A DNA stretch of 46,461 nucleotides from a virus. Taxonomy: Duplodnaviria > Caudoviricetes. The number at the start of each line of letters is the position of its first letter. Positions within the stretch are counted from its first letter, which is position 1. The translations under genes and the position numbers were made by a program. Of this stretch, positions 1 to 46,461 are shown in pieces. The stretch is from the IMG/VR virus record IMGVR_UViG_3300038673_000301, positions 1-46,461 of that record; one strand, given 5' to 3'. A model generated the notes under the pieces. That model saw nothing but the letters and a program-made list of their open reading frames with translations, made no database searches and was not told where the DNA came from.

Positions 1-55
1 TTGTTGCCGGGTCCACGTCGGCGGCCGCGCGAATATAAAATTTTAAGAAGTCGCT
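1..55 (+). repeat. Terminal direct repeat, left copy (circular overlap)
   Basis: Bases 1-55 are identical to 46353-46407. The 55-bp length matches a common assembler k-mer size. Confidence 0.95.
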
Positions 56-274
56 GTAAACCCGATCGGGCCCGTACCTGCAGCCCAACTCTTTAATCTT
101 CGTAAAAAACTTATCATCTACCGGACCATACCAGCCGTGTGTGTATATGCATACATCATCGTAAATACCATATAACGGCGTCCTTATAAAAATACAAAAA
201 TCGTCAAAACGGCCCCGGCCAAACCAAATACGGGTACCGTTTTTTAAAACAGTTATTTCTTTTTCAGCTTCCAC
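1..274 (-). CDS. N-terminal half of a conserved hypothetical protein (DUF7004-like) spanning the circular junction
   Basis: Manual translation from GTG at 274 gives EAEKEITVLKNGTRIWFGRGRFDDFCIFIRT...YGPDRVYSDFLKFY with no stop, in frame with ORF 46087..46368. The start codon is uncertain. Confidence 0.7.
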   Translation of the reverse strand, partial: MEAEKEITVLKNGTRIWFGRGRFDDFCIFIRTPLYGIYDDVCIYTHGWYGPVDDKFFTKIKELGCRYGPDRVYSDFLKFYIRAAADVDPAT

Positions 275-373
275 GCGGACCACAGCCCCCCGTAGATTAG
301 CCACAACCACACACCCACGGCCAAAACCACGCCAACCAGCGCGACAACAACTTCATAAACCCCTGTCGTTTTA

Positions 374-5962: not shown

Positions 5963-8785
5963 TTAAATTTTTCCACCGGACGCGATATACAGCGCGCATA
6001 GGTCCGGGCACATTTCTTTAATAGTCTGTGTCCTTATATAGCCCGCCCGCTGTTGAATTATTGAATTAACGTGATACAGCGACTTGGTGAAGTCATAATC
6101 TGTCTGTTTCTCAAATAGTTTAGCCAGTTGTGCCGGGTCGTGTATACCACTGTTATAAAATTCCCGGACTATGAAAATTCTCATCCAGTGTCCTTCCGGG
6201 CCCTCCAAACGCTGATTTATAGCCCAATTAAATATCGGCCGCGCCTGTCCGGGTATGACCGCTTCGACGGGTTCCTGCTCTTCGTCCGGATCCGGTTCAG
6301 GTACGAAACCGGATATATCAACTTCCCAAATAATTAATTTTTCAAAGTTTTCTACAAACTCACCATCGATAAAAATTTTGCTTTTGTTCCCGGTCTTGCG
6401 GTGTGTCGCGAACGGCAGCTTAACCAAATTACCGTATCCTTTGCGGCTTAGTTTCGTCTGCTTCGGGTAAACCTCACATTTAACACCGGCCGCCTTTATA
6501 ACCGCCCGGCCCCACGCGCGCGCCGTTTTCGCGTCTATCTTTTTCAGAATAACCCATATATGATAACTGTGGGGCGTGCCGGACGCTTCAAGGATATATG
6601 GAACATCGGCTTTATCCAGCGTGCCGCGCAACTTTGTTAAATCGTTTTCGGCCCGTGTAACTGTTTTTTTATAGTCGGCCTCGGTGTCCTCTTCCTTCCG
6701 GTGTGCATCAATGTCAAAACACACCCAACGCACCATGTTTTTATTATCAAGTGTGTACGCACCTATTGTTATTTTGCCGGCTATATGGTTATCTATCAAA
6801 GTTTCGGTTATTGGTGCCGACACTTTAAAAAAACTTCCATTGATGCCCTGCTCTGCATAAACATCAGTACGCGAAAGTAACACGAATAGCAGTTCTCTTG
6901 GTAAATATATTTCATCTGAAATTTTTAAATTTATCCCTATAGAATAATATATAGGGACGTTTTTTAAAATTTCAGATGAACTATATTTATTCTGTTTGTG
7001 TTTGACTGCCTTTTCAACCATATCATTAAAGCCGGCGCATCTTGATATTTGCGGCTTTGTAATTTCTTTTGAAGTGTTCACCGCCGAACACCGCCGGAAA
7101 TCGCCTTCCGTGTTAGAAATATCACACATTCTCCCAAAGCCCCACGTTACAAAATTAACGCATTTTTCATACGTGCAGCCAAAAGCAAATACAAGCGACG
7201 GTTCCACGCCGGCCGGGTCCTTAACCCGCGACCACGCCTGCCAAGTATCACTATGCACAGCCTCTTCTCTGAGAATCAAGGCTTCGTCGTGTGTTTCACA
7301 CAACACATCGAAAGCATTGGACGGTTTTTCGGCCGCGCCCACGGCAATCATAACCCTGCAATTCGACGCGACGCCCATTGTTTCAGGTGCTTTATAGTAC
7401 GTGACCGCGTGCGGGTGCCCACAATTTTTAAGCCCTTCCTGCAACAGCCGGGCCTCTTTTATGGACATTGTAATTATAATACAGTCGTCGTCGCCGTACA
7501 TTTCCAAAACCCTTATGATTTTGTCCATCACTTCGGTACTCTTTTTGTAAAGTGAGTTGCGGCCAATCGTGCCAAAGTTCTTTGTGTCGGCCAATATCAA
7601 CATTTTTCTATTTGTCTGCATCGGGTCGCCCTGATACCCGAACATAATATCTTTAATCTGTGTGCCCGGCATGAAATAAAGATTTTTATAATCGTGGCTG
7701 CAGATGGTCGCCGACGTTAAAATAATCCGCTTATCTTTATTTTGTATGGAATATATAAAAGATTGAATAGAATCTTGGAACATTTTATCGACGGCGGTTA
7801 GCATCGCCTTTATTTCGCCGCCTTCCCGGATAGCGTTTATTTGTATTTGTTCACTTGCCAGAATGTTCATCATTTTATATATTTGTAGTATGTCGTCCAT
7901 TGACAGTCCATACTTTCTTCTGTTCTCCGTTAAAGTTATTATTTCGTTATAACACGCAACAATTTCTTTTTCTGTCAGGTCACTGTATGAATTTTTAAAG
8001 GTTTTTGATAGTTTCCGTTTAAAAAATTCCGGGTCTATTGAATCCATATAAACTAACATTATACCGTTTTTTATAGTGTCGTCCTGCACCAACAGATAAA
8101 AATTACTAACTACCTTCCGTATTTCTTTAAAATCGTCGGCCGCCGGCACGAACTTTTCGAGTTTAAGCCACTTATCCACGTTCTTTTCATTGTCGTAAAC
8201 ACATATCGATTCGGTCCGCCCATATTGAATTTCGTGTATCTCATCGAAAACCACGTTCCGGGCCGTTGATATTTTTTCGATTATGCGTTCTGCTGTGGTG
8301 TTCGGCCGGCTTCCGCTTGCTATCATCAAAGCAACCAGCTTTTGATAGGTTAGGGCCACGCCCTGAAATTTTGCATTGTGTAAAATACTTGTTACCGGGC
8401 ACGAATAATAATATTCACAATCTGCACATTTTTCGGCCAAAGGCAAAATAGGCAACCGTTTAAGGTCCGGGCACACCATACACCTTTCTTCGTTTTTTAG
8501 ACAGTTGTGATTAGATGGTATGTGTATAACATTCTCGTGCTTGCCGGCCATATCTGAAAACTTAACGGCGTCTTTTATAACCGTGTCGTCTGCAATCCTG
8601 TTTGTGGGTACAAGAACTAAAAAACTTTCGTTTCTATTGATACTTTCGGCTATTAGCGCCGTTGTGGCCCCGGCCCGCGTGGTCTTATAGGTTATCAGCA
8701 CGCCGGTTTCATAGGTTTCATAAATCCCGTGCGCCGTCAGTAAACGCGGGTCCGTGTTTATAACTTTTTCAATTGTTAAAACCAG
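5963..8785 (-). CDS. Replication protein: SF2 helicase-like domain + archaeo-eukaryotic primase (AEP) + PriL/PriX-like C-terminus
   Basis: VVFDEIH (DExH), ILTSAT, QAWSRV; AEP motifs WVCFDID, EASG..SYHIWV, EVYPKQ, GNLVKLPF; C-terminal GHWMR..DYD. The frame is open upstream of the GTG at 8701 to a CTG at 8785 preceded by an RBS. Confidence 0.85.
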   Translation of the reverse strand: MVLTIEKVINTDPRLLTAHGIYETYETGVLITYKTTRAGATTALIAESINRNESFLVLVPTNRIADDTVIKDAVKFSDMAGKHENVIHIPSNHNCLKNEERCMVCPDLKRLPILPLAEKCADCEYYYSCPVTSILHNAKFQGVALTYQKLVALMIASGSRPNTTAERIIEKISTARNVVFDEIHEIQYGRTESICVYDNEKNVDKWLKLEKFVPAADDFKEIRKVVSNFYLLVQDDTIKNGIMLVYMDSIDPEFFKRKLSKTFKNSYSDLTEKEIVACYNEIITLTENRRKYGLSMDDILQIYKMMNILASEQIQINAIREGGEIKAMLTAVDKMFQDSIQSFIYSIQNKDKRIILTSATICSHDYKNLYFMPGTQIKDIMFGYQGDPMQTNRKMLILADTKNFGTIGRNSLYKKSTEVMDKIIRVLEMYGDDDCIIITMSIKEARLLQEGLKNCGHPHAVTYYKAPETMGVASNCRVMIAVGAAEKPSNAFDVLCETHDEALILREEAVHSDTWQAWSRVKDPAGVEPSLVFAFGCTYEKCVNFVTWGFGRMCDISNTEGDFRRCSAVNTSKEITKPQISRCAGFNDMVEKAVKHKQNKYSSSEILKNVPIYYSIGINLKISDEIYLPRELLFVLLSRTDVYAEQGINGSFFKVSAPITETLIDNHIAGKITIGAYTLDNKNMVRWVCFDIDAHRKEEDTEADYKKTVTRAENDLTKLRGTLDKADVPYILEASGTPHSYHIWVILKKIDAKTARAWGRAVIKAAGVKCEVYPKQTKLSRKGYGNLVKLPFATHRKTGNKSKIFIDGEFVENFEKLIIWEVDISGFVPEPDPDEEQEPVEAVIPGQARPIFNWAINQRLEGPEGHWMRIFIVREFYNSGIHDPAQLAKLFEKQTDYDFTKSLYHVNSIIQQRAGYIRTQTIKEMCPDLCALYIASGGKI
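6911..6980. repeat. 70-bp imperfect palindrome, copy A (inside the helicase-primase gene); candidate origin or recombination site
   Basis: TTCATCTGAAATTTT...AAAATTTCAGATGAA with core TCCCTATA-N8-TATAGGGA; 67/70 identical to the reverse complement of 15111-15180. Confidence 0.9.
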
Positions 8786-9206: not shown

Positions 9207-9229
9207 ACGAATCTTTCATGCCCCCGCTA

Positions 9230-9297
9230 TCATTTCGTTTCTAAGGCACTTTTTAAGCCCGACACGGCATTTTACCCCCGGTTAATAGAAATATACC
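9230..9297 (+). repeat. Intergenic repeat family, copy R1
   Basis: TCATTTCGTTT..TTTTAAGCCCrACACGGCATTTTrCCCCC..AATAGAAAyATA shared with 44304-44370; TAAGGCACTTTTTA shared with 14853. Confidence 0.75.
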
Positions 9298-14806: not shown

Positions 14807-14852
14807 TAATAGTCACAACATTTCACCGCGTCGCCCGCTTACATTTTAATTT

Positions 14853-14959
14853 TAAGGCACTTTTTATGCTCGTGGCTGCGTTCTACCCCCTTAGTAATAC
14901 AAACATACCAGCCACAAATAAAATCCCCGTACAAGTCGCCCGGCTCAATCCTACGGCCC
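14853..14959 (+). repeat. Intergenic repeat family, copy R3
   Basis: Left half matches R1 (TAAGGCACTTTTTA..TACCCCC..TAATAsAAAyATACC); right half matches R2 and R4. Confidence 0.7.
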
Positions 14960-15110
14960 ATATAACCCCCGGCACTAACGCCCCACACAGCCACAAAACG
15001 GCCGGGGTTTCCAGTGGAAACAAAGGTACTATATAAACTTTTTATAAAACCACAATTATAATTACATGCAACCAAACACGGGTGGGTTTTTTATTACATC
15101 ATAATTTTAA

Positions 15111-15180
15111 TTCATCTGAAATTTGAAAAAAAGTCCCTATATATTATACTATAGGGATAAATTTAAAAATTTCAGATGAA
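15111..15180. repeat. 70-bp imperfect palindrome, copy B (intergenic, AT-rich flanks); candidate replication origin
   Basis: Its reverse complement differs from 6911-6980 at only 3 positions. Confidence 0.9.
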
Positions 15181-15269
15181 CAATATTTATACGGTTATAA
15201 TAACGCCAGCCGGTCTTGATATGCTTTTTAATATATTAAGCGGGATATAATTTTTTATATACTTGGCCG

Positions 15270-44254: not shown

Positions 44255-44303
44255 ATCAAAACCCCCGTTTATAGGCAGCGCATATCGATTGTGCTTCCCG
44301 ATT

Positions 44304-44410
44304 TCATTTCGTTTTAAAGACCGTTTTTAAGCCCAACACGGCATTTTGCCCCCACCCCAATAGAAACATATTAACCGGGTTCTAAAATCACCGTGGCGGC
44401 CCACTGGCGC
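44304..44410 (+). repeat. Intergenic repeat family, copy R4
   Basis: About 66 bp of strong similarity to 9230-9295; right arm TAAAATCACCGT similar to R3. Confidence 0.75.
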
Positions 44411-45740: not shown

Positions 45741-46112
45741 TTAATCAGCCTTCCCGTATAGCCGGCCCAGCCGTTCCGGGTGTTCAGCCATGTGACACAC
45801 CACACACAAAATTTCGATGTTGTCCGACCGGGCGTTCTTTATGTTCCGGTCTTTGTGGTGCCTGTGGTGCTTCTTTCCGGTTTCGTCGTAAGCGCCGCAC
45901 CGTTCGCAATGGTGTGTATCCCGGCCGCTTGCCCTCACGACCGCTTCGGCCCTGTAAAACATTGCCCGGCGGCTCGATGGCACATAATCGCTTATAACCT
46001 CATAAACACCGGGTTCAACTTCGTAAATTTCATTGTTTCCACACATAATGGTTGCCTCCATTCGATATTTACCATTATGTACATTATTAGATATAAAGAT
46101 TTCGTTGTGCAA
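45741..46112 (-). CDS. HNH endonuclease
   Basis: CERCG..HRHHKDRN..N..DNIEILCVVCH..EH; start may be ATG 46046. Confidence 0.85.
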   Translation of the reverse strand: MHNEIFISNNVHNGKYRMEATIMCGNNEIYEVEPGVYEVISDYVPSSRRAMFYRAEAVVRASGRDTHHCERCGAYDETGKKHHRHHKDRNIKNARSDNIEILCVVCHMAEHPERLGRLYGKAD

Positions 46113-46407
46113 TGGCCGGCACTATTTCGCCCGCCCGTTTGTGTTTTGAAAAATTCGCCACTTCGCGCGGTGATTTGGGCGGGTTATCTTTTAACAGTTG
46201 ATACATGGCCAGCCGCTTCAGTTTTTTTCTAAATGGCATACGCGGCGGCCGGTTCTCTTCGGCTATCAGCATAGCATATAACAGTATAAACATTATTTCT
46301 ACATAGTCCCGGTCCCGGCCGTAGCCGTCGGCCGTATCCGATATTAGCTGAATTGTTGCCGGGTCCACGTCGGCGGCCGCGCGAATATAAAATTTTAAGA
46401 AGTCGCT
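46087..46407 (-). CDS. C-terminal half of the DUF7004-like protein (continues from 1..274)
   Basis: LYAMLIAEEN..KKLKRLAMYQLL..EVANFSK motif; in frame across the junction. Confidence 0.7.
   Translation of the reverse strand, partial: SDFLKFYIRAAADVDPATIQLISDTADGYGRDRDYVEIMFILLYAMLIAEENRPPRMPFRKKLKRLAMYQLLKDNPPKSPREVANFSKHKRAGEIVPAIAQRNLYI
46353..46407 (+). repeat. Terminal direct repeat, right copy
   Basis: Identical to 1-55. Confidence 0.95.
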
Positions 46408-46461
46408 CTGACATACTCCACACGCTAAAGCTGTGTGGGTTCTACGGTTATTTTTCTGTTT
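46408..46461 (-). mobile_element. Right end of an IS200/IS605-family element (partial; alternative allele)
   Basis: Minus strand AGAACCCACACAGCTTTAGCGTGTGGAGTATGTCAG: a subterminal hairpin with CTTTAG loop ending GTCAG. The empty allele has TTTAC immediately 5' of the junction. Confidence 0.65.

Follow-up and report, generated by a model that had tools for sequence, protein, structure and literature searches.

The interrupted gene and the virus that carries it

The window, meaning the whole stretch of 46,461 nt analysed here (IMG/VR record IMGVR_UViG_3300038673_000301), is a circular tailed virus followed by a 55-nt assembly overlap and a 54-nt tip. Positions 1-55 recur at 46353-46407 with 100% identity, both on the plus strand (repeat family D6). 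The left copy continues into GTAAA, and the right copy, which forms the right flank of the inserted element, continues into 54 different bases (46408-46461) that run up to the contig end; exact repeat and letters alike bear out an earlier note on this DNA, which had described a shared 55-mer that diverges in this way. Once the overlap is removed the circle measures 46,352 bp, and it is the 54-nt tip that makes a complete circular virus appear linear and 89% complete.

The window encodes tailed-virus families including a terminase, a Mu F-like head protein, a tail tape-measure protein and a primase, and a 1,223-aa protein of the virus carries disaggregatase-related domains, a family typical of Methanosarcina. 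The virus is probably a methanogen virus, with a host among the Methanosarcinaceae. Neither protein comparison nor the empty-site motif retrieved a close viral relative from IMG/VR, a search to whose scope near-identical records possibly did not belong. Two repeats of the genome may be recorded in passing. One is an AT-rich palindrome of about 90 nt with 40-bp arms and an 8-nt loop, in two copies (6902-6996 and 15102-15196), the first of which sits within a 912-codon primase-like ORF; the other is a dispersed 57-nt sequence whose three copies (9223-9279, 14834-14890 and 44297-44353) are 75-84% alike and lie in ORF-poor stretches.

The window origin splits a single DUF7004 gene of 191 codons, whose halves are found at both window ends (PF22539 positions 2-70 and 56-153). 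Codons 1-85, upstream of the insertion point, occupy 56..310 on the minus strand, and codons 86-191 with the stop codon, downstream of it, occupy 46087..46407, likewise on the minus strand; the tip joins the gene after codon 85. In the inserted allele the DUF7004 protein is predicted to be cut after codon 85 and to continue for about 13 further residues before a stop. The intact 191-aa product (P0138) is present in the protein collection, and the DUF7004 cluster (P0136) has six members, four of which are complete. Two of these four lie on contigs of 46,407 nt, which comprise the circle and the overlap with no tip. The remaining two members consist of just the C-terminal part and come from contigs that reach 121,425 and 54,921 nt; they may mark integrated or interrupted copies of the virus. 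The protein has no PHROG, PADLOC or PDB match and 242 relatives at E<=0.001, some of which carry a fused DNA polymerase III alpha or adenine methyltransferase domain. An assignment as AcrVA2-like was rejected, the Atlas language-model likeness of 0.87 lying under the 0.9 bar and coming without Pfam support. A small HNH endonuclease-like gene (45741-46112, minus strand) overlaps the end of the DUF7004 gene.

The tip as a right end of the IS605 group

An exact scan with parts of the tip returned 14 loci (3 viral, 1 genome and 10 metagenome), and 12 of them, all except L002 and L003, match the whole 54 nt (46408..46461, minus strand) with 1-3 mismatches, which supports the earlier reading of the tip as an IS200/IS605 right end. 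The tip sequence occurs once in the window and spans, in terms of the full copies, the position directly after the tnpB stop codon to the right terminus. On the minus strand its 3' end reads ...GGAGTATGTCAG and the empty site TTTAC|AGCGAC. The right subterminal hairpin (46418..46438, minus strand) has a predicted DNA-fold energy of -6.6 kcal/mol (z -2.6; 4 of 200 shuffles were equally good), and across 19 relatives compensatory changes affect 4 of its 10 helix pairs.

The element ends in the right cleavage motif TCAG (46408..46411, minus strand), after which conservation stops. Because the flanks vary from the first base onward (A15, T12, C8 and G4 among 39 distinct right flanks), the right terminus is fixed at TCAG. 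The AG with which the flanks of L004 and the window begin had raised a shifted boundary, target TTACAG and end TCAGAG, which is ruled out by the other flanks beginning with T, C or G. The fourth base of a guide pairs with the last base of the cleavage motif. The predicted right guide, GAAC (46439..46442, minus strand), lies 5' of the hairpin foot, placed like the right guide GR described for IS608 (PMC5934647), and is found in 37 of 51 right-end matches. The IS607 family, whose members are described as having a serine recombinase TnpA and GG ends (PMC13565253), was considered and discarded, as the element has an HUH/Y1 TnpA and the terminus TCAG; the IS607_TnpB model scores 39.4 bits, far under its cut-off of 350.

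Full elements of about 1,584 nt are present at 5 of the 14 loci. Two further loci, which represent one and the same contig, run past the contig end, and the remainder are contig-end fragments or short right-end remnants, the latter including right-end-only remnants in the virus-like contigs L005 (54 nt), L011 (133 nt) and L012 (96 nt). At L002 (2976-3023, element strand) and L003 a gene-less 48-nt fusion joins the left and right hairpins, with TTAC before it and TCAG at its end. The full-length relatives encode an HUH TnpA (NF033573, 147.5 bits against a cut-off of 55) and, downstream of it in the gene order read in L004, a TnpB of 328 aa (NF040570, 180.1 bits against a cut-off of 100). Both genes are present in the full-length relatives and, by ungapped coverage, in the copy in sequencing runs X1 and X2; the window itself contains neither. 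The element does carry tnpB, which the earlier note had put as an 'if': NF040570 scores above cut-off and the RuvC triad is intact.

The left subterminal hairpin is found in 5 of 5 full-length loci, and in a search for the hairpin only the left guide AAAG appeared in all five. A separate search for left ends, which required the guide AAAG, located them for 14 of 41 right-end sites; TTAC stands 13-15 nt before the guide in 13 of these 14, and TTAT takes its place in the fourteenth. With its HUH/Y1 tnpA, downstream tnpB, two subterminal hairpins and insertion at TTAC with no duplication, the element belongs to the IS605 group of the IS200/IS605 family, which does not require terminal inverted repeats.

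Relatives and distribution

Among the matches listed (120 of 2,103), the named relatives of the TnpB are Methanosarcina sp. (82%), Methanohalophilus profundi (75%) and Methanosarcina sp. UBA289 (75%). By contrast, the closest named records bear Bacteroidales and Clostridia MAG labels, and L004, the sole contig matched by an exact 23-mer genome scan, is located in a Proteiniphilum MAG. We take these labels, that of L004 included, for probable mis-binning, given that the flank of L004 shares 96% identity with L012, a contig with an HK97-gp10-like viral gene. The two related virus-like contigs share one insertion site, at which L004 has the whole element and L012 its last 96 nt only. The L004 flank has no match in IMG/VR.

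When the right-end motif is relaxed, IMG/VR yields 35 occurrences spread over 31 contigs; 12 of these are accompanied by matches to tnpA and tnpB, 8 by matches to tnpB only and 15 by neither. Three right-end-like motifs (L040, L052 and L053) lie on one 183-kb viral contig, with no tnpA or tnpB match within 2.2 kb. The ten distinct genome and metagenome sites divide into three with viral hallmark genes in the flank or at a near-identical locus, one with cellular-type genes and six unclassified, and a viral preference is therefore neither demonstrated nor excluded. PHROGs families exist for both TnpA and TnpB, and insertions of this element type are common in viruses. A search of annotated phages gave no DNA match to the element and seven records with distant TnpBs (31-41% identity). 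High recent mobility of TnpB has been described in Methanosarcina (PMC10691335), and virus-encoded TnpBs have been reported from landfills (PMC12607003).

Insertion 3' of TTAC

In the empty allele the target motif TTAC, which is also the predicted TAM of the element's TnpB, lies at 56..59 on the minus strand. TTAC precedes 322 of 92,704 possible junction positions on both strands (0.35%), and because the break in addition falls exactly at the element terminus, a chance junction is very unlikely. The same geometry recurs in a second, terminase-carrying virus, where L005 (252-305) reads TCAG|CATTCC and the empty allele reads TTAC|CATTCC in L017 (2001) and L018 (280). Insertion 3' of TTAC, as the earlier note had it, is thus borne out by the empty site of the window, by 13 of the 14 left ends and by the empty allele in L017 and L018. 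In IS608 the left guide AAAG serves TTAC and the right guide GAAT serves TCAA (PMC5934647, PMC3201880). L005 has a further peculiarity, in that its right-end stretch, also exactly 54 nt, immediately abuts viral DNA that lies some 0.8 kb upstream of the TTAC site; this is either the same kind of k=55 junction edge added by the assembler or a deletion.

Empty allele, donor-like copy and junction in the sequencing runs

Nine sequencing runs were listed as matches. Four of them (X1-X4) were compared with the window end, and X1, X2, X4 and X5 with the element of L010; X6 and X7, with a small share of words, were left out. X1 and X2 are possibly the source of the window and do not count as independent of it. 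In both, a 38,142-nt contig passes straight through the empty site. A related virus in X4, a run of a different study, has an empty site too, beside which the sequence already differs. Two other assemblies each yield a clean contig of 46,407 nt in which the gene is uninterrupted. The empty allele, in short, dominates.

The complete element is present as well, on a separate contig (23,629 nt in X1) that covers it with no gaps and with 82 differences from L010. In X1 this donor-like contig matches window positions 46407-46461 at 55 of 55 bases, that is, 54 element bases and one shared flank base, and it still aligns where L010 has its TTAC, although the single letters there are not displayed. 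X2 also covers the complete element, the right end of the locus being split into two pieces. The donor flank has no match in IMG/VR, which is weak evidence.

X1-X4 contribute 12 contig pieces, none of which spans the filled junction, and the loose ends listed include no left junction of the insertion with the virus. Contigs drop rare variants, so that absence from them bounds the inserted allele as uncommon, not absent; since no piece bridges, no left junction is seen and two clean 46,407-nt contigs exist, the inserted allele is likely a minority. The earlier note had claimed that both alleles are present, had inferred that a subpopulation carries the IS inside the DUF7004-like gene and had asked for the full element with its left junction. 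The empty allele is secure from X1, X2, X4 and the two 46,407-nt contigs, and the filled one has the window assembly as its sole source; the junction does lie within the gene, after codon 85, but a sizeable IS-bearing subpopulation is so far not supported, the site being empty in these contigs; and a complete ungapped copy was recovered from X1/X2, with no left junction among the loose ends listed.

Origin of the 54-nt tip

The length of the tip was reproduced in a simulated k=55 graph whose input was the viral circle together with a donor copy and reads across the junction. The simulated tip is 55, 54, 53 or 52 nt long when donor and virus flanks share 0, 1, 2 or 3 bases, and because the one base shared here predicts the observed 54, the tip is the junction edge into a donor copy and not a truncated element or a dead end. 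The simulation suggests that the assembler would have circled the empty genome once and then taken the short junction edge. That edge would run as far as the point at which it joins the donor copy, and 55 less the one shared base gives 54 nt. The simulated tip is identical with or without a left junction, and the window alone therefore does not prove a whole insertion.

The best explanation, to which we assign a probability of about 0.82, is that the window records the right end of an IS605-group insertion sequence at TTAC in the DUF7004 gene, likely through a real, rare transposition from a complete copy on another replicon of the same community. By analogy with IS608, TnpA would have excised the element as a single-stranded circle, and insertion would have followed 3' of a TTAC chosen by pairing with the left guide AAAG, with no target duplication. 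The identity of the tip with the complete X1/X2 element indicates that the event was recent.

Could the junction instead derive from a close relative, a provirus or a strain, which carries the element or a right-end remnant, and not from the assembled virus? Such remnants are known from L005, L011 and L012, and the two C-terminal DUF7004 pieces described above would suit such a source. We nevertheless consider it quite unlikely, given that the 55 flank bases are identical to the virus, while the relative in X4 differs beside the site, and that a tip identical to the complete X1/X2 element points to a recent event. An artefact, either a library chimera or a mis-assembly of virus and donor contig, would account for a junction that appears in no independent contig and for a tip that is an assembly-graph edge. 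A random chimera, however, would have had to land precisely at the terminus and next to a motif with a frequency of 0.35%, on the correct strand; the single base shared at the join is too little for a repeat mis-join, and the same precise geometry recurs in L005 against L017/L018, all of which makes an artefact very improbable indeed. A real and ordinary new insertion, an IS605-group right-end junction at a canonical TTAC that reflects a recent minority event, is thus the most likely reading, and assembly tips of this sort could be mined for fresh insertions.

TnpB, its guide and the question of homing

The RuvC residues D134/E219/D298 and the zinc-finger residues C273/C276/C289/C291 are invariant in 8 of 8 aligned TnpBs. 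The last ~165 nt of 19 relatives adopt a covarying fold with two-sided changes in 17 of 36 pairs; in an evaluation whose structure derives from the same alignment, 95% of cells are paired against 77% in shuffled and 34-38% in slid controls. This predicted 3'-end fold overlaps the 3' end of tnpB and ends at the right terminus, as expected of an omega-RNA-like element, and Rfam returned no match for it at four loci. If it behaves like the ISDra2 and ISGst systems, the element would use TTAC as its TAM and roughly the first 16 flank bases as its guide. The predicted 16-nt target in the empty allele lies within the first overlap copy (40-55, minus strand), and TTAC plus these 16 nt occurs nowhere else in the virus; the runner-up site has three mismatches and lacks TTAC.

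An inserted copy is accordingly predicted to give TnpB a guide that matches the empty site beside its TTAC TAM. The default role of such a guide would be to restore the element after excision, and cutting of sibling genomes would require both alleles within one cell. The earlier note had gone further and proposed that the guide targets IS-free sibling viruses in a homing or interference system; the reading of the guide and the unique, perfect, TTAC-flanked site stand, whereas an operating system is so far not supported, the empty allele being dominant. Active homing or interference, in which viruses with the IS would cleave the genomes of empty siblings during co-infection and the element would spread through the virus population, is compatible with the best explanation but is an additional claim. 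The invariant RuvC triad, the covarying omega-RNA-like fold, the unique target and the drive demonstrated in plasmids (PMC11870625) are in its favour, as are pairs of viral contigs that share exactly one insertion site, although such duplicates are possibly one virus assembled twice. Against these weigh the empty allele that dominates every independent assembly, the disruption of a conserved gene, the lack of any nearby tnpA or tnpB match at 15 of the 35 viral right ends, and the reported inactivity in an interference assay of the TnpB of IS608, likewise a TTAC element (10.1101/2023.03.14.532601). On balance we regard active homing as unlikely: it is plausible in principle, and a rise of the inserted allele is not seen. 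Equally speculative, and rather improbable, is the wider proposition that methanogen viruses are a recurring niche in which each insertion reprograms TnpB against IS-free siblings; the window would then capture the opening step, in which donor, target and the empty majority can all be seen.

The idea of homing is not new in kind, having been shown for plasmids, where drive of IS-bearing over IS-free copies is demonstrated (PMC11870625), and proposed for co-infecting phages, which a review names as a theoretical target of TnpB drive (PMC13565253). The literature searched, to which subscription papers mostly did not belong, contains no demonstration of TnpB homing between archaeal viruses; were it true of co-infecting viruses, TnpB drive would extend from plasmids to viruses and archaea. 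The compact, 328-aa archaeal TnpB, with its well-supported predicted TTAC TAM and omega-RNA fold, is directly testable.

Comparison with known systems

The closest model is IS608 (ISHp608) of Helicobacter pylori, which shares with the element the order tnpA then tnpB, subterminal hairpins, the TTAC target, the left guide AAAG and insertion with no duplication (PMC3201880, PMC5934647). The two differ in right guide and cleavage motif (GAAC/TCAG here, GAAT/TCAA in IS608) and in TnpB, which here has 328 aa and archaeal nearest named relatives; IS608 TnpB is reported inactive in an E. coli assay (10.1101/2023.03.14.532601). As described for ISDra2 and ISGst, the guide would come from the right flank, the TAM would equal the TnpA target and the empty donor joint would be the cut site (PMC8612924, 10.1101/2023.03.14.532601); unlike these, the element has a predicted TAM of TTAC in place of TTGAT or TTTAT, and it sits in a virus.

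In the TnpB gene drive of Mears et al. (preprint, PMC11870625), as would be the case here, the IS-bearing copy of a multi-copy replicon targets IS-free copies. That work concerns plasmids in E. coli, and its main text contains neither 'virus' nor 'archae'; in contrast to it, no rise of the inserted allele is seen in our case. The exchange of TnpB between Methanoperedens and its viruses (10.1101/2023.08.02.551345) likewise has TnpB moving between a Methanosarcinales host and viruses. Whereas the evidence there is phylogenetic, the window offers a nucleotide-precise junction together with a matching donor-like copy, and thus a record, to the base, of an IS605/TnpB element entering an archaeal virus.
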